Part shown: positions 598 through 49,237 of the stretch, piece by piece
Numbering within the stretch: position 1 is the stretch's first letter
How the letters are laid out: each line of letters begins with the position of its first letter
DNA from: Escherichia coli
GTDB taxonomy: Bacteria > Pseudomonadota > Gammaproteobacteria > Enterobacterales > Enterobacteriaceae
Reading direction: 5' to 3' (one strand)
DNA: 64,000 nt
NCBI RefSeq assembly: GCF_022846255.1
Contig: NZ_AP025682.1
Position numbers and translations under genes: made by a program
The notes under the pieces: model-generated
The model's database searches: none
Told to the model about the DNA's origin: nothing
The model's input: the letters and a program-made list of their open reading frames with translations, nothing else

Positions 598-1039
598 AGT
601 AAGTACAAAACCTATTCGTTGTATGACAAATGTCACAATTCGATCATGGATAAATCGGGGCAAAAATGCAATGTTGCAGCACTATTTATCTCATATTATT
701 TGAGGGTTATAACTTCACATTATCCCCGAATTATAAGTGGTAATAATAAAGCGTTATTTAAGAAATATCGCATGTGGAGACGCCATATTAAATATTGTCA
801 ACCTAAAGAAACTCCTAAAAACCATATTGAATGACACTTAATATAATTCTTAAAAATAGCCAATTGCCGAATTGTTACCTTGCCTGCTATTCCGTTAGCT
901 GTAACACTTCCTCCTGCATTATTGGAGAGCCAATATTCAATTACCATAATGTCACCTTATATTCGGAAATTAATTTCCGCAATAACCCTTTCTCATCAAC
1001 GACTGTATGCAGAGAGGGTTTGAAAAATTAAACTAAATC

Positions 1040-1078
1040 AGTGTGTTGGTAGCTAAAAAGCCAGGGGCGGTAGCGTGT
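1040..1078 (+). promoter_or_regulatory. JUMPstart element with ops site (GGCGGTAGCGTG at 1066..1077) in the cps leader
   Basis: Exact ops 12-mer inside a 39-bp block nearly identical to the block upstream of rfbB at 25204..25243; about 180 bp upstream of the wza start. Confidence 0.8.
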
Positions 1079-5957: not shown

Positions 5958-6446
5958 ATGCTGGAAGATCTGCGCGCCAACAGCTGGAGTTTACGCCCGT
6001 GCTGCATGGTTCTCGCCTATCGCGCTGCTCATTTTTGTTCGGTGTGGCGCAAAAAGAACGTCCTCAACAATCTTTGGGCGGCCCCGCTGCTGGTGCTGTA
6101 TCGCATTATCACCGAATGCTTTTTCGGTTATGAAATCCAGGCCGCCGCGACCATTGGCCGACGCTTTACTATCCATCACGGTTACGCCGTAGTGATCAAT
6201 AAAAACGTGGTAGCGGGGGATGATTTCACCATTCGTCACGGCGTCACTATCGGCAATCGTGGTGCCGATAACATGGCATGTCCACACATTGGCAACGGCG
6301 TCGAACTCGGTGCCAACGTCATTATTCTTGGTGATATCACGATTGGTAACAACGTCACCGTGGGCGCGGGCAGCGTGGTGCTCGACTCTGTCCCGGACAA
6401 CGCGCTGGTGGTGGGAGAAAAAGCGCGAGTGAAGGTAATTAAATGA
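5958..6446 (+). CDS. wcaB: Colanic acid acetyltransferase (hexapeptide-repeat)
   Basis: 162 aa; left-handed beta-helix repeats (IGNRGADN, GNGVELGANVIILGDITIGNNVTVGAGSVV). Confidence 0.9.
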   Translation: MLEDLRANSWSLRPCCMVLAYRAAHFCSVWRKKNVLNNLWAAPLLVLYRIITECFFGYEIQAAATIGRRFTIHHGYAVVINKNVVAGDDFTIRHGVTIGNRGADNMACPHIGNGVELGANVIILGDITIGNNVTVGAGSVVLDSVPDNALVVGEKARVKVIK

Positions 6447-7660
6447 ATATTCTGCAATTTAATGTGCGACTGGCGGAAGGCGGGGCAGCAGGTGTGGCGT
6501 TAGATCTCCACCAGCGCGCGCTGCAACAGGGGCTGGCGTCACATTTTGTCTACGGCTACGGCAAAGGCGGCAAAGAGAGCGTCAGCCATCAGAACTATCC
6601 GCAGGTCATCAAACATACGCCACGGATGACCGCGATGGCGAACATTGCGTTGTTTCGTCTGCTTAATCGCGATCTGTTCGGCAATTTCAATGAGTTATAT
6701 CGCACCATTACTCGCACACCGGGCCCGGTGGTTCTGCATTTTCATGTGCTGCACAGCTACTGGTTGAATCTTAAGAGCGTGGTGCGCTTTTGCGAAAAAG
6801 TGAAAAACCATAAACCGGATGTCACTCTGGTCTGGACGCTACACGACCATTGGAGCGTTACCGGACGCTGCGCCTTTACCGACGGTTGCGAAGGCTGGAA
6901 AACGGGCTGCCAGAAATGCCCGACCTTAAATAACTATCCACCGGTAAAGATTGATCGCGCGCACCAGCTGGTGGCGGGCAAACGGCAGTTATTTCGCGAG
7001 ATGCTGGCGCTGGGCTGTCAGTTTATTTCCCCCAGCCAGCATGTGGCTGATGCTTTCAATAGTCTGTACGGTCCAGGGCGTTGCCGGATTATCAATAATG
7101 GCATTGATATGGCAACCGAAGCGATTCTGGCGGACTTGCCTCCGGTGCGCGAAACTCAGGGCAAGCCGAAAATCGCGGTGGTAGCGCATGACCTGCGTTA
7201 CGACGGCAAGACTAACCAGCAACTGGTGCGTGAGATGATGGCGCTGGGCGACAAAATCGAACTACATACCTTCGGTAAGTTCTCGCCGTTCACCGCTGGC
7301 AACGTGGTTAATCACGGCTTTGAAACTGACAAGCGCAAGTTGATGAGCGCGCTCAATCAGATGGATGCGCTGGTATTCAGTTCTCGCGTCGATAACTACC
7401 CACTGATTTTGTGTGAGGCGCTATCGATTGGTGTGCCGGTGATTGCCACCCATAGCGATGCGGCGCGGGAAGTGCTGCAAAAATCCGGTGGTAAAACCGT
7501 CAGCGAAGAAGATGTGCTGCAACTGGTGCAGTTAAGCAAACCGGAAATCGCACAGGCGATATTTGGTACCACGCTGGCTGAGTTCAGCCAGCGCAGCCGC
7601 GCCGCCTACAGTGGACAACAGATGCTGGAGGAGTATGTCAACTTCTATCAGAATCTGTAG
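6443..7660 (+). CDS. wcaC: Colanic acid glycosyltransferase
   Basis: 405 aa; 4-bp overlap with wcaB; operon position. Confidence 0.9.
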   Translation: MNILQFNVRLAEGGAAGVALDLHQRALQQGLASHFVYGYGKGGKESVSHQNYPQVIKHTPRMTAMANIALFRLLNRDLFGNFNELYRTITRTPGPVVLHFHVLHSYWLNLKSVVRFCEKVKNHKPDVTLVWTLHDHWSVTGRCAFTDGCEGWKTGCQKCPTLNNYPPVKIDRAHQLVAGKRQLFREMLALGCQFISPSQHVADAFNSLYGPGRCRIINNGIDMATEAILADLPPVRETQGKPKIAVVAHDLRYDGKTNQQLVREMMALGDKIELHTFGKFSPFTAGNVVNHGFETDKRKLMSALNQMDALVFSSRVDNYPLILCEALSIGVPVIATHSDAAREVLQKSGGKTVSEEDVLQLVQLSKPEIAQAIFGTTLAEFSQRSRAAYSGQQMLEEYVNFYQNL

Positions 7661-8855
7661 CTACCTGCTGCTGCCGCTGATCTACCTGCTGGTTAACGTT
7701 AAAATCGCCCAGCTTGGCGAAAGTTTCCCCATCACCATCGTCACTTTTTTACCTGTCTTGTTACTGCTGTTTTTAGAGCGCATCAGCGTTAAAAAATTGA
7801 TGATTGCCTTAGGGATTGGCGCGGGGCTCACGGCGTTTAACTACCTGTTTGGTCAGTCGTTGGATGCCAGTAAATATGTCACTTCAACCATGCTGTTTGT
7901 CTATATTGTGATCATTATTGGCATGGTGTGGAGTATTCGCTTTAAAACGATTTCTCCACACAACCATCGCAAGATATTACGTTTCTTTTATCTGGTGGTC
8001 GGGCTGGTGGTGGTGCTGGCGGCGGTGGAGATGGCGCAAATTATCCTCACCGGCGGTAGCAGTATTATGGAGTCGATTTCGAAATATCTGATTTACAGCA
8101 ACAGCTATGTGCTGAATTTCATTAAATTTGGCGGCAAGCGCACGACAGCACTTTATTTCGAACCGGCATTTTTCGCTCTGGCATTAATCTCAATTTGGCT
8201 CAGCATCAAACAGTTTGGTATCAAAACGCCTAAAACCGATGCTATGATTCTCGCAGGGATAATATTATCCGGATCGTTTTCAGGGGTTATGACCTTTATC
8301 CTGTTTTATTTGCTGGAGTGGGCATTTCAATATCTGAATAAAGAGGCGATTAAGAAAAAGTTACCGTTAGCATTGATTTCTCTGGCTGTATTCCTGGTTG
8401 GTGTGGTAATCGCGTTCCCTTATATTTCCACCCGTCTGGGCGATTTAGGTACAGAAGGATCGTCATCGTATTATCGTATTGTCGGTCCGCTGGTGATGGT
8501 CGGTTATTCTTTAACCCATATTGACGGTGTAGTCAGATTTGGCTCACTTTATGAATATGTCGCATCATTCGGAATATTTAACGGTGCGGATGTCGGAAAA
8601 ACCATAGACAATGGTTTGTATCTGCTGATTATTTATTTTTCCTGGTTCGCGGTGCTTTTATCACTGTGGTACATGGGGAAAGTGATAAAAATGATGATCA
8701 ACGCTTTTGGTGATAACCGCAATTTTCGCGTGCAATTATATCTTTTTACTCCGGTATCGCTGTTTTTTACCGGTTCGATATTTAGCCCGGAATATGCATT
8801 TTTAATCGTCTGTCCGTTTATTTTGCGAAAAGCGTTAAATATACACCCTAAATAA
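7635..8855 (+). CDS. wcaD: Putative colanic acid polymerase (Wzy-like polytopic membrane protein)
   Basis: Start taken at the ATG at 7635 (MSTSIRICSYLLLPLIYLL...); multiple predicted transmembrane helices; overlaps the wcaC 3' end by 26 nt. Confidence 0.85.
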   Translation: MSTSIRICSYLLLPLIYLLVNVKIAQLGESFPITIVTFLPVLLLLFLERISVKKLMIALGIGAGLTAFNYLFGQSLDASKYVTSTMLFVYIVIIIGMVWSIRFKTISPHNHRKILRFFYLVVGLVVVLAAVEMAQIILTGGSSIMESISKYLIYSNSYVLNFIKFGGKRTTALYFEPAFFALALISIWLSIKQFGIKTPKTDAMILAGIILSGSFSGVMTFILFYLLEWAFQYLNKEAIKKKLPLALISLAVFLVGVVIAFPYISTRLGDLGTEGSSSYYRIVGPLVMVGYSLTHIDGVVRFGSLYEYVASFGIFNGADVGKTIDNGLYLLIIYFSWFAVLLSLWYMGKVIKMMINAFGDNRNFRVQLYLFTPVSLFFTGSIFSPEYAFLIVCPFILRKALNIHPK

Positions 8856-8890
8856 TTCGAGTTGCAGGAAGTGGGTGAGCGAGGAAAACC

Positions 8891-8922
<32 letters not shown>

Positions 8923-8935
8923 TACGAGGTAAAAC

Positions 8936-11396: not shown

Positions 11397-12362
11397 ATGA
11401 GTAAACAACGCATTTTTATCGCTGGCCATCGCGGGATGGTCGGTTCTGCCATCAGGCGGCAGCTCGAACAGCGCGGTGATGTGGAACTGGTATTACGCAC
11501 CCGCGACGAACTGAACCTGCTGGACAGCCGCGCGGTGCATGATTTCTTTGCCAGCGAGCGCATTGACCAGGTCTATCTGGCGGCGGCGAAAGTAGGCGGC
11601 ATTGTTGCCAACAACACATATCCGGCAGATTTCATCTACCAGAACATGATGATTGAGAGCAACATCATTCACGCCGCGCATCAGAACGACGTCAACAAAC
11701 TGCTGTTTCTCGGATCGTCCTGTATCTACCCAAAACTGGCAAAACAGCCGATGGTAGAAAGCGAGCTGTTACAGGGCACGCTGGAGCCGACCAACGAGCC
11801 ATACGCCATTGCCAAAATCGCCGGGATCAAACTGTGCGAATCTTACAACCGCCAGTACGGACGCGATTACCGCTCTGTCATGCCGACCAACCTGTACGGG
11901 CCGCACGACAACTTCCATCCGAGTAATTCGCATGTGATCCCTGCATTGCTGCGTCGCTTCCACGAGGCGACGGCACAGAATGCACCGGACGTGGTGGTGT
12001 GGGGCAGCGGTACACCGATGCGCGAATTTCTGCACGTCGATGATATGGCGGCGGCGAGCATTCATGTGATGGAGCTGGCGCACGAAGTCTGGCTGGAGAA
12101 CACCCAACCGATGCTGTCGCACATTAACGTCGGCACGGGCGTTGACTGCACTATCCGCGAGCTGGCGCAAACCATCGCCAAAGTGGTGGGTTACAAAGGT
12201 CGGGTGGTTTTTGATGCCAGTAAACCGGATGGTACGCCGCGCAAACTGCTGGATGTGACGCGGTTGCATCAGCTTGGCTGGTATCACGAAATTTCACTGG
12301 AAGCGGGGCTTGCCAGCACTTACCAGTGGTTCCTTGAGAATCAAGACCGCTTTCGGGGGTAA
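11397..12362 (+). CDS. fcl: GDP-L-fucose synthase
   Basis: 321 aa; N-terminal NAD(P)-binding motif [11 protein letters not shown]; immediately after gmd. Confidence 0.95.
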
Positions 12363-12844
12363 TGATGTTTTTACGTCAGGAAGACTTTGCCACGGTAGTG
12401 CGCTCCACACCGCTTGTCTCTCTCGACTTTATTGTTGAGAACAGTCGCGGCGAGTTTCTGCTTGGCAAAAGAACCAACCGCCCGGCGCAGGGTTACTGGT
12501 TTGTGCCGGGAGGGCGCGTGCAGAAAGACGAAACGCTGGAAGCCGCATTTGAGCGGCTGACGATGGCGGAACTGGGGCTGCGTCTGCCGATAACAGCAGG
12601 CCAGTTTTACGGTGTCTGGCAGCACTTTTATGACGATAACTTCTCCGGCACGGATTTTACCACTCACTATGTGGTGCTCGGTTTTCGCTTCAGAGTAGCG
12701 GAAGAAGAGCTGTTACTGCCGGATGAGCAGCATGACGATTACCGCTGGCTGACGCCGGACGCGTTGCTCGCCAGTAACGATGTTCACGCTAACAGCCGCG
12801 CCTATTTTCTCGCTGAGAAGCGTGCCGGAGTACCCGGATTATGA
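12362..12844 (+). CDS. gmm: GDP-mannose mannosyl hydrolase (Nudix)
   Basis: 159/160 aa; Nudix box [23 protein letters not shown]; the start may be the second ATG at 12365. Confidence 0.9.
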
Positions 12845-15503: not shown

Positions 15504-15603
15504 CCGTTGAATAATCAACCGGATTAATTCTCCGGTAAATAACGAAAAAACAAAATTGGCCGTTTCGGTCAGGGCCAACTATTGCCTGAAAAAGGGTAAC
15601 GAC

Positions 15604-19903: not shown

Positions 19904-19975
19904 ATGGCTGTTTTCGGTTCCGGCAACGAACACAACAAACATAGCCTCACCTGGCATCAAATTTATGAGGAAAAA

Positions 19976-21256
19976 ATGAAATTACTTATTCTGGGCAACC
20001 ACACTTGCGGCAATCGCGGCGACAGCGCCATCTTGCGCGGCTTACTTGATGCCATCAACATCCTCAATCCACACGCCGAAGTGGACGTGATGAGTCGCTA
20101 TCCGGTCAGTTCTTCCTGGCTGCTCAACCGTCCGGTAATGGGCGATCCGCTGTTCCTGCAAATGAAACAACACAACAGCGCGGCGGGCGTGGTTGGGCGC
20201 GTTAAAAAAGTTCTCCGTCGCCGCTACCAGCACCAGGTATTGCTCTCACGCGTCACCGACACTGGCAAGCTGCGTAATATCGCCATCGCCCAGGGATTCA
20301 CCGACTTCGTGCGCCTGCTGTCAGGTTACGACGCCATTATTCAGGTCGGCGGATCGTTTTTTGTCGATCTCTACGGCGTTCCGCAGTTTGAACATGCGCT
20401 TTGCACGTTTATGGCGAAAAAGCCGCTGTTTATGATTGGTCACAGCGTCGGCCCGTTCCAGGATGAGCAATTTAACCAACTGGCGAACTACGTATTCGGT
20501 CACTGCGACGCGCTGATCCTGCGCGAATCGGTCAGCCTTGAACTGATGAAACGCAGCAATATCACCACCGCAAAAGTCGAACATGGCGTCGATACCGCGT
20601 GGCTGGTCGATCACCACACCGAAGACTTCACCGCCAGCTATGCCGTTCAACACTGGCTGGACGTTGCCGCACAACAGAAAACGGTGGCCATTACCCTGCG
20701 CGAACTGGCACCGTTTGACAAACGTCTCGGCACCACCCAACAAGCGTATGAAAAAGCCTTTGCCGGGGTGGTCAATCGCATTCTCGATGAAGGGTATCAG
20801 GTGATTGCGCTCTCCACCTGTACGGGCATCGACAGCTATAACAAAGACGACCGCATGGTGGCGCTCAATCTGCGCCAGCACATCAGCGATCCTGCCCGTT
20901 ACCACGTAGTGATGGATGAACTCAACGATCTGGAAATGGGCAAAATTCTCGGTGCCTGTGAACTCACCGTTGGTACGCGCCTGCACTCTGCCATTATCTC
21001 GATGAACTTTGCCACTCCGGCGATTGCCATCAACTACGAACATAAATCCGCCGGGATCATGCAACAACTGGGGCTACCAGAGATGGCAATTGATATCCGT
21101 CATTTATTAGACGGCAGCCTGCAAGCGATGGTTGCGGATACCTTAGGTCAGCTTCCGGCGCTGAACGCACGACTTAACGAAGCTGTCAGTCGCGAACGTC
21201 AGACGGGAATGCAGATGGTGAAATCTGTGCTTGAACGCATCGGGGAGGCAAAATGA
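19976..21256 (+). CDS. wcaK: Colanic acid pyruvyl transferase
   Basis: Start taken at the ATG at 19976 (MKLLILGNHTCGNRGDSAILRGL...), giving 426 aa. Confidence 0.88.
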   Translation: MKLLILGNHTCGNRGDSAILRGLLDAINILNPHAEVDVMSRYPVSSSWLLNRPVMGDPLFLQMKQHNSAAGVVGRVKKVLRRRYQHQVLLSRVTDTGKLRNIAIAQGFTDFVRLLSGYDAIIQVGGSFFVDLYGVPQFEHALCTFMAKKPLFMIGHSVGPFQDEQFNQLANYVFGHCDALILRESVSLELMKRSNITTAKVEHGVDTAWLVDHHTEDFTASYAVQHWLDVAAQQKTVAITLRELAPFDKRLGTTQQAYEKAFAGVVNRILDEGYQVIALSTCTGIDSYNKDDRMVALNLRQHISDPARYHVVMDELNDLEMGKILGACELTVGTRLHSAIISMNFATPAIAINYEHKSAGIMQQLGLPEMAIDIRHLLDGSLQAMVADTLGQLPALNARLNEAVSRERQTGMQMVKSVLERIGEAK

Positions 21257-22483: not shown

Positions 22484-23878
22484 ATGCCATTTAAAAAACT
22501 CTCCCGACGCACGTTCCTGACGGCAAGCTCGGTGCTTGCCTTCCTCCATACGCCTTTCGCCCGTGCAATTCCCGCTCAACAAAGCGTTAACATTAACGAC
22601 TACAACCCTCACGACTGGATCGCCTCATTTAAACAAGCCTTCAGCGAAGGGCAAACGGTCGTCGTGCCTGCCGGATTGGTTTGTGACAATATCAACACTG
22701 GCATCTTCATTCCTTCTGGCAAAACGTTACACATCCTCGGAAGCCTGCGCGGCAACGGTAGAGGGCGATTTGTCTTACAGGACGGCAGCCAGGTGACAGG
22801 GGAGGAGGGCGGCAGTATGCATAACATCACCCTGGATGTGCGTGGTTCTGACTGCACCATCAAAGGGCTGGTGATGAGCGGCTTTGGCCCGGTGACGCAG
22901 ATCTATATCGGCGGCAAAAACAAACGGGTCATGCACAACCTGACCATCGATAACCTGACCGTTAGCCACGCTAATTACGCCATCTTACGCCAGGGATTTC
23001 ATAACCAGATAATCGGTGCCAACATCACCAACTGTAAGTTCAGCGACTTACAGGGCGACGCTATTGAATGGAACGTGGCGATTAACGACAGTGATATTTT
23101 GATATCCGACCATCTCATTGAGCGCATTAACTGTACCAACGGCAAAATCAACTGGGGCATCGGCATAGGTCTTGCGGGAAGCACTTATGATAACAACTAC
23201 CCGGAAGACCAGGCAGTGAAAAACTTTGTCGTGGCGAATATCACGGGATCGGATTGTCGGCAACTGATCCATGTTGAAAATGGTAAACATTTTGTTATTC
23301 GTAATATCAAAGCCCGTAATATCACGCCGGATTTCAGTAAGAAAGCAGGTATTGATAACGCCACAGTTGCTATTTATGGTTGTGACAACTTTGTGATTGA
23401 TAATATTGAAATGATTAATAGTGCCGGGATGTTAATCGGCTATGGGGTAATTAAAGGCAAATATCTCTCGATACCGCAGAATTTCCGAGTGAATGATATT
23501 CAACTGGATAATACTCATCTTGCTTATAAATTGCGCGGCATTCAAATCTCCGCCGGGAATGCTGTCTCCTTTGTGGCGCTGACTAACATTGAGATGAAGC
23601 GTGCGTCGCTTGAGCTACACAACAAACCGCAACATCTTTTTATGCGCAATATCAATGTGATGCAGGAATCCTCAGTTGGACCCGCATTGAGCATGAACTT
23701 TGACATGCGCAAAGACGTTCGAGGCGTTTTTATGGCGAAAAAAGAAACACTGCTGTCTCTTGCAAATGTTCATGCGGTGAATGAAAAAGGACAAAGCTCC
23801 GTCGATATCGACAGGATTAATCACCATATTGTTAATGTGGCAAAGATTAACTTTAGATTGCCGGAACGGAGAGAGTAG
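22484..23878 (+). CDS. wcaM: Colanic acid biosynthesis protein (predicted beta-helix fold)
   Basis: 464 aa; Tat-like signal ([14 protein letters not shown]); last gene of the cps operon. Confidence 0.88.
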
Positions 23879-25203: not shown

Positions 25204-25243
25204 GCAGTGCTCTGGTAGCTGTAAAGCCAGGGGCGGTAGCGTG
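25204..25243 (+). promoter_or_regulatory. JUMPstart element with ops site (GGCGGTAGCGTG at 25232..25243) in the O-antigen operon leader
   Basis: 39-bp block cagtgctctggtagctgtaaagccaggggcggtagcgtg, about 75 bp upstream of rfbB; near-identical to the cps-leader copy. Confidence 0.85.
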
Positions 25244-46585: not shown

Positions 46586-46626
46586 CAACCGCGCAATAAA
46601 AAAGCCCCCGGAAGGTGATCTTCCGG
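46586..46626 (-). terminator. his attenuator (rho-independent terminator hairpin)
   Basis: Minus-strand gagaaagcccccggaagatcaccttccgggggcttttttat between hisL and hisG. Confidence 0.9.
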
Positions 46627-46694
46627 GGGCTTTCTCATGCGTTCATGCACCACTGGAAGATCTGAATGTCTTCCAGCACACATCGCCTGAAAGA

Positions 46695-46745
46695 CTAGTC
46701 AGGATGATGGTGATGATGGTGGTGTTTAAATTGAACGCGTGTCAT
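46695..46745 (-). CDS. hisL: his operon leader peptide
   Basis: Minus-strand atgacacgcgttcaatttaaacaccaccatcatcaccatcatcctgactag encodes MTRVQFKHHHHHHHPD with 7 consecutive His codons; too short for the ORF track. Confidence 0.95.
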   Translation of the reverse strand: MTRVQFKHHHHHHHPD

Positions 46746-48971: not shown

Positions 48972-49237
48972 AGAAAAATTATTATGACAAGCCTCTCATT
49001 CTCTTGTCATTTCCCCCCCATTTAGGCACAATGCGCCGCTGTCAAAAAATGACTAAAAACCGACGTTTCATCAGCGTCGGTTATTTTTTGCTTCAAACCA
49101 ATCATTCATACCAAGAGGCCGGGCTTCGTACCGGATAGATATTTACTAAAAATCGACAGTTGTTGTCGCTGAGGAATCCAAAAAAATGGGGCAATTTTTT
49201 GCTTACGCGACGGTTATCACCGTAAAGGAGAATGACC

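Follow-up and report, generated by a model that had tools for sequence, protein, structure and literature searches.

The wcaC/wcaD junction of the colanic-acid (cps/wca) operon is, in all probability, part of the normal annotated architecture of that operon, with wcaD starting at ATG 7635 from a Shine-Dalgarno (SD) sequence of its own and with a junction that is frozen across the family. WcaD synthesis would begin with the help of the invariant GGAGGA that is embedded in the last wcaC codons. The bases of the overlap are held by two reading frames, and those just upstream by the ribosome binding site (RBS) and a conserved C-terminal motif of WcaC; it is probably because of these constraints together that the junction is frozen.

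The window, the whole 64,000 nt stretch of Escherichia coli DNA that was analysed, contains the colanic-acid operon, then galF, and then an O1-type O-antigen cluster. When 21 K-12 proteins were mapped onto the window, all were found, in the K-12 order and with 95-100% amino acid identity. The order is wza-wzb-wzc-wcaABCDEF-gmd-fcl-gmm-wcaI-cpsB-cpsG-wcaJ-wzxC-wcaKLM, then galF, and the cps operon extends from the start of wza at 1256 to the end of wcaM at 23878. Membership of the colanic acid operon is evident from this gene order, is supported by the annotation of close genomes, and is marked by a JUMPstart/ops element in the wza leader (Rfam RF01707 at 1039-1077, 53.8 bits). The coordinates of the junction features are collected in Table 1. 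WcaC matches TIGR04015 at 898 bits (cut-off 785) and WcaD matches TIGR04010 at 872 bits (cut-off 590), both at equivalog level. The wcaC gene runs from ATG 6443 to TAG 7658-7660, and 402 of its 405 encoded amino acids are identical to those of K-12.

Table 1. Features at the wcaC/wcaD junction and at other close junctions of the cps operon
Feature	Position	Strand	Basis or remark
wcaB, colanic acid acetyltransferase	5958..6446	+	TGA stop overlaps wcaC ATG
wcaB/wcaC ATGA 4-nt overlap	6443-6446	+	coordinates; -4 kept in 75/77 species
wcaC, GT4 glycosyltransferase, 405 aa	6443..7660	+	NCBIfam TIGR04015 equivalog, full length
Rejected wcaD start, TTG, 98-nt overlap	7563..7565	+	no SD; in-frame stops in relatives
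Predicted RNA hairpin	7618..7658	+	folding, -15.7 kcal/mol
Most conserved 42-nt stretch	7619..7660	+	rank 1/959 windows, 81-sequence 1-kb alignment
wcaD Shine-Dalgarno UGGAGGA	7626..7632	+	2-nt spacer before AUG; anti-SD duplex -9.3 kcal/mol
wcaD, Wzy-type colanic acid polymerase, 406 aa	7635..8855	+	TIGR04010 equivalog; same start in K-12 and PGAP
Dual-coding overlap, 26 nt	7635..7660	+	wcaD in +1 frame relative to wcaC
fcl stop and gmm start, TAATGATG	12360..12367	+	1-nt overlap or 2-nt gap by ATG choice
gmm/wcaI ATGA 4-nt overlap	12841..12844	+	coordinates; same in K-12
wcaK/wcaL ATGA 4-nt overlap	21253..21256	+	coordinates; same in K-12

The first-pass annotation had placed the wcaD start 26 nt within wcaC, and its coordinates agree with those of K-12 MG1655 and of PGAP. 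On the minus strand of the MG1655 genome sequence (NC_000913.3), wcaC (b2057) lies at 2130853-2132070 and wcaD (b2056) at 2129661-2130878, so that the curated K-12 start site and the 26-nt overlap (2130853-2130878) match exactly, with start and stop codons unchanged. The overlap is also the same in two PGAP-annotated genomes. Across 7592-7667 every base of the window is the same in K-12, STEC299 and Ecol_881, and the differences from K-12 MG1655 are synonymous, strain-level changes outside the junction. WcaD has 406 amino acids in the window versus 405 in K-12, because an approximately 70-nt palindromic insert follows the gene in the window. A blastn search with this short, split wcaD/wcaE element, which bears on the question of a multi-copy ERIC/IRU sequence, matched the same locus only. 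The 26 nt of the overlap translate as the WcaC C-terminus, (Y)VNFYQNL and the stop, and as the WcaD N-terminus, MSTSIRICS.

Both open reading frames are real and the wcaD start is conserved and uniquely supported, making this a genuine co-directional overlapping pair. Long phase-1 overlaps between co-directional genes are a common class, and this is one of them. Among co-directional bacterial gene pairs, about 15% overlap (PMC6728339), and of all overlaps about 45% are of 4 nt and about 15% of 1 nt, the remainder being longer with decaying frequency (PMC3887535). The junction is already known, being annotated in this way in K-12, and is ordinary for bacterial operons. The reference wcaD annotation is confirmed and little else is at stake.

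The wcaD locus was compared across 80 species that belong to more than 20 named Enterobacteriaceae genera, including Salmonella, Citrobacter, Enterobacter, Kluyvera, Buttiauxella, Cedecea, Kosakonia, Mangrovibacter and Franconibacter, giving 81 sequences with the window. The wcaD ATG is kept in all 81, and the wcaC stop is TAG throughout, with an overlap of 26 nt in 80 of the 80 species. This agreement of start, stop and overlap across species is a stronger proof than any single genome could provide. The duplex of the wcaD SD with the anti-SD is the third strongest of 21 starts (20 cps genes and galF). Its 2-nt spacer is below the usual optimum, and the motif is invariant in the 81 sequences, the synonymous sites of wcaC included. 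Only ATG 7635 has an SD, the alternative wcaD starts scoring -3.5 or worse. A full-text search found no literature combining wcaD with initiation-site or N-terminal methods, and wcaC, wcaD and gmm are not listed in the one N-terminomics supplement consulted.

An alternative start overlapping wcaC by 98 nt had also been mentioned, and TTG 7563 is indeed the start of the longest open reading frame. The wcaD frame is open from this codon in this strain and its first ATG is 7635, so a longer WcaD beginning at TTG 7563, or at GTG 7611, might be considered. Neither codon has an SD. The TTG (-72) and the GTG (-24) are missing from many of the 80 species, two of which have no alternative wcaD start codon at all, and in-frame stops are present at -42 or -60 of the wcaD ATG in 7 of the 80 (named Citrobacter, Cedecea and Mangrovibacter species, an Enterobacter sp. 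and an unclassified member of the Enterobacteriaceae). Position 1 of TIGR04010 corresponds to residue 1 of the ATG 7635 protein, leaving the 24-aa TTG extension unmatched, and both K-12 and PGAP use the other start. The longer WcaD is effectively refuted.

Long overlaps are at times annotation errors, and the start of WcaD could in principle have been mis-called, with the true start beyond the wcaC stop and the overlap absent. The wcaD frame lacks ATG, GTG and TTG codons from 7638 to 7757; the next candidate is TTG 7758, 41 codons downstream and lacking an SD. Its use would remove the N-terminal MS(R/T)SIRICSYLLLPLIYLL, which is conserved in the 81 sequences, and the segment that would be lost is still recognisable in homologues of 41-45% identity. 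This makes it very unlikely that WcaD begins beyond the wcaC stop. TTG 7563, GTG 7611 and TTG 7758 were all rejected on the evidence of SD, conservation and next available start, and ATG 7635 is strongly supported as the start of wcaD.

The junction is also the most conserved part of its surroundings. In the alignment centred on the wcaD start, 7619-7660 has a mean column entropy of 0.088 bit versus a median of 0.574, and the longest invariant run is the 14 nt CAGATGCTGGAGGA at 7619-7632, directly upstream of the wcaD ATG. Third positions have a mean entropy of 0.07-0.10 bit in the overlap, compared with about 1.2 bit in wcaC and wcaD coding sequence on either side. Within E. coli, the 42-mer 7619-7660 is identical in 4724 of the 4733 genomes carrying it; for two flanking control 42-mers the corresponding counts are 864 of 3838 and 2814 of 3423. 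Few changes in the overlap can be doubly silent, because a third position in one frame is a first or second position in the other, and the conservation of the junction is the expected outcome of dual coding and an embedded RBS. The WcaC tail is itself conserved as protein in distant relatives, ending in SGQQMLEEYVNFYQNL before the stop in the window versus SGNKMLAEYSGVYENI, SGNMMLKEYMKIYETI and SPNTMFNSYMNIYK in the relatives. Dual coding, the SD and this conserved tail account for the conservation without an RNA structure.

WcaD proper forms a tight family with identity of at least 83%, and the next relatives mostly have 45% or less, with one at 50%. The overlap with a WcaC-like gene is of 14 nt in the 45% and 41% homologues, which keep the position of the stop but start four codons further on. 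It is of 26 nt, from gene coordinates alone, in the 50% homologue, and is a 4-nt GTGA in the 31% homologue. Since these more distant wcaC/wcaD-like pairs still overlap, at differing lengths, the comparison indicates that the wcaC-wcaD overlap is old and that only in the Enterobacteriaceae colanic-acid clusters is its length fixed exactly.

Close spacing is found at many junctions of the operon. Of the 1- and 4-nt overlaps between adjacent genes claimed in the first-pass annotation, those of wcaB/wcaC, gmm/wcaI and wcaK/wcaL (-4) stand, but the 1-nt overlap of fcl and gmm requires the first ATG (12362), the start in the 160-aa sequence of PDB 1RYA. With the second ATG (12365), which is the choice of RefSeq for K-12 (NP_416555.2, 159 aa), of PGAP and of the NCBIfam model, there is a 2-nt gap. 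The short intergenic gaps were recovered at 1-5 nt on mapping the K-12 proteins, with +2 at wzb/wzc, wcaA/wcaB, gmd/fcl and wcaI/cpsB, +1 at wcaJ/wzxC and +5 at wza/wzb. Besides the ATGA pairs, seven junctions have spacings of +1 to +5 nt and intragenic SD motifs. Across genera, the -26 spacing of wcaC/wcaD is kept in 80/80 species, -4 at wcaB/wcaC in 75/77 and +2 at wcaA/wcaB in 70/77; the wcaD/wcaE, wcaE/wcaF and wcaF/gmd spacers are freely variable. Because the first two of these spacings are so widely kept, the overlap pattern is no chance artefact of ORF calling.

Efficient translational coupling has been described at stop/start spacings of -4 to +3 nt, a larger overlap lowering it sharply, and more than a larger gap does (PMC12548453). 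Of 14 native pairs tested, five of them from E. coli, 13 were coupled (PMC12548453; PMC6728339). The wcaB/wcaC, gmm/wcaI, wcaK/wcaL, wzb/wzc, wcaA/wcaB, gmd/fcl, fcl/gmm, wcaI/cpsB and wcaJ/wzxC junctions all have spacings in the range for termination-reinitiation, and for fcl/gmm this is so with either ATG. The suggestion that tight spacing in the operon reflects coupling therefore fits the -4, -1, +1 and +2 junctions, where it would be a reasonable, if generic and conventional, reading, but the -26 junction that had been highlighted falls outside the efficient range (PMC12548453). At the -4, +1 and +2 junctions ordinary coupling probably keeps output proportional along the approximately 22-kb mRNA. 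The ATGA of wcaB/wcaC, gmm/wcaI and wcaK/wcaL is shared with known ATGA/TGATG coupled pairs, such as trpE-trpD and the five E. coli pairs of Huber et al. 2019 (PMC6728339). Coupling in the cps operon, unlike that of these canonical short-overlap pairs, is suggested by the spacing, and wcaC/wcaD lies beyond -4 to +3.

At -26, initiation would most likely rely on the SD of wcaD itself. One systematic reporter series found zero coupling at -25 nt (PMC12548453), and published reporter data of this kind argue against efficient termination-reinitiation at the wcaC/wcaD junction; an overlap at such a spacing need not imply that form of coupling. If the two genes are coupled, unfolding of a structure at the RBS or SD-assisted backward re-initiation is the more likely route. 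Phage coat-lysis pairs at -38 and -50 couple through unfolding or backward scanning (PMC12548453), and coupling of the unfolding type is an established mechanism (PMC6728339; PMC12548453). The long negative spacing of wcaC/wcaD is shared with the MS2 and fr coat-lysis pairs (-50 and -38 nt), atpHA and rpmI-rplT (PMC12548453, PMC6728339). As in these systems, the wcaD RBS is predicted to be buried, with the other arm of the hairpin in the upstream open reading frame, and wcaC/wcaD may work like the RNA-unfolding class. Unlike them, the wcaD hairpin is a prediction that shows no covariation and has a stability common in the operon.

In the predicted hairpin, the SD and the bases upstream of it are paired with wcaD codons 3-8, which are also the last wcaC codons. 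The loop contains the AUG, and the last base of the 3' arm is the U of the wcaC UAG. For each of the 80 other species the prediction is the same fold, with energies from -10 to -16.3 kcal/mol. The predicted energy for opening the wcaD RBS, 14.2 kcal/mol, is the joint highest of the 21 genes, the lowest being those of wza (1.8), wcaJ (2.2) and gmd (5.0). Of the 41-nt windows in the operon, 2.6% are at least as stable as the hairpin, in 77 separate places. No covariation was found in sets of 25 and 81 sequences, in which the core is invariant; 10 of the 15 pairs never vary, and the three varying pairs change on one side only, with R opposite U. Most of the invariance in the 5' arm can be attributed to the SD and to the conserved QMLEEY motif, one synonymous site (7621) being left unexplained. 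When the 45% homologue, L084, was mapped by eye onto the E. coli hairpin, only 9 of the 15 pairs could form, and its start is shifted by four codons, so that an ancient RNA structure would gain no support from it. There were no Rfam matches in 7300-8000 at the gathering score, and a scan of the wcaC/wcaD junction found no promoter-like or terminator-like sites. The hairpin is a thermodynamic prediction, and any role of it at the wcaD RBS would be putative.

It is possible that translation of wcaC gates access to the wcaD SD, which the predicted hairpin would hide. A ribosome ending wcaC at 7658-7660 would occupy the 3' arm, leaving the SD and AUG single-stranded behind it. With the hairpin melted, de novo initiation or a short backward re-initiation could take place before refolding. 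Initiation that depends on upstream translation in such a way has been described (PMC6728339).

It may instead be that the overlap is neutral and plays no part in regulation, with wcaD initiated de novo from its SD independently of wcaC translation, and with a start or stop codon that drifted into an overlap which dual coding then froze. This has an appreciable chance of being correct, though one clearly short of even. The SD is strong and invariant, the reporter series gave no coupling at -25 nt (PMC12548453), and the distribution of lengths among long phase-1 overlaps can be reproduced by neutral models (PMC3887535). In addition, the four-codon shift of the start in distant homologues, with its 14-nt overlap, indicates that the exact length is non-essential. 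However, with a predicted 14.2 kcal/mol to open, the RBS would be one of the least accessible in the operon, which would hinder independent initiation, and ribosomes elongating on wcaC must cross it, making some interplay unavoidable.

The converse reading, that the hairpin in the 42-nt junction (7619-7660) acts as a conserved translational throttle tying WcaD synthesis strictly to the translation of WcaC, at a lower level, is a tentative one that the folding predictions make conceivable and on balance rather doubtful. If true, it would represent conserved translational control of a Wzy polymerase, with modest impact.

Internal SD sequences stimulate +1 frameshifting in prfB. As wcaD is in the +1 frame and the SD-like GGAGGA lies upstream of the overlap, a programmed +1 frameshift giving a WcaC-WcaD fusion protein could be imagined for this junction. 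No slippery or hungry-codon motif is present in 7635-7657, where there are ordinary sense codons throughout, and the data are accounted for by a conserved ATG whose SD geometry is correct. Distant homologues also differ in how long the overlap is and in frame relation, including the 4-nt GTGA. With the shift motif absent and an independent wcaD start conserved, the fusion was rejected as wholly improbable.

The normal annotated architecture, with wcaD initiated within wcaC, may be of use to those re-engineering the operon. Recoding or separating wcaC and wcaD would affect the wcaD RBS, the C-terminus of WcaC and, possibly, a regulatory hairpin.

Down-tuning of Wzy polymerases through rare 5' codons and low basal expression has been reviewed (PMC12004945), and WcaD is also of the Wzy type. 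Its RBS has a short spacer and a predicted structure, and codon 6 of wcaD, read by eye, is the rare AGA or AGG in the junctions of the 81 species. In contrast to the down-tuned polymerases, wcaD has just one such codon, imposed on it by the overlapping wcaC frame.

Several E. coli genomes of serogroup O1, Ecol_881 and MS6198 among them, match the window at 100% identity from position 23792 onward (compared up to 44000). In the part before this (1-23791), the cps operon has ~98% identity to the same genomes, with the final difference, as tested to 44000, being at position 23791. Third codon positions account for 82% of the mismatches to these genomes in the cps operon, so the two segments (1-23791 and 23792-44000) form a natural recombination mosaic. 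Its breakpoint lies between wcaM and galF.

Within the operon, the gap between wcaD and wcaE is 80 nt, as against 10 nt in K-12, due to the presence of a palindromic insert of ~70 nt (8856-8925) with a predicted fold of -24.5 kcal/mol. Because of this insert the last residues of WcaD are altered, the protein being 406 aa rather than the 405 aa of K-12. Out of 5426 complete genomes of E. coli, approximately 730 carry the insert at the same locus, and blastn matches to it are at the wcaD/wcaE locus only. Its ends presumably resemble ERIC/IRU repeats. The intergenic spacer between wzxC and wcaK (19904-19975) is highly variable in length between strains: the window has 72 nt, K-12 has 275 nt, and strain STEC299 has 660 nt. 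This variation suggests that repeat or mobile elements have been gained and lost here.

A perfect 9 bp inverted repeat is present inside wcaC (7572-7593; GCTGGCTGA-GTTC-TCAGCCAGC). Its hairpin is among the most stable local ones of the operon, at about -20 kcal/mol (41-nt windows at 7553-7576), and its sequence is without conservation in other genera.

For five genes, the K-12/PGAP starts are 12 to 147 nt downstream of those of the longest ORFs. Taking the longest-ORF starts of wzc and wcaA would generate spurious overlaps of 34 nt (wzb/wzc) and 41 nt (wzc/wcaA), respectively.

Gene starts and Rfam matches in the window
Feature	Position	Longest-ORF start	K-12/PGAP start	Context	Source
wzc		2811	2847		
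wcaA		4969	5116		
cpsG		15556	15604		
wcaK		19904	19976		
galF		24041	24053		
JUMPstart element	1039-1077			upstream of wza	Rfam
algC RNA motif	15550-15599			immediately upstream of cpsG	Rfam
JUMPstart element	25205-25243			upstream of rfb cluster	Rfam
His operon leader	46596-46719			minus strand	Rfam
sRNA STnc240	49017-49091				Rfam

A wcaC/wcaD locus of Enterobacteriaceae type was also found in the contig CACSKA010000001.1, labelled 'Chryseobacterium sp. 18061'; probably the assembly bears a wrong label or is contaminated. Its WcaD has 91% identity to that of the window.
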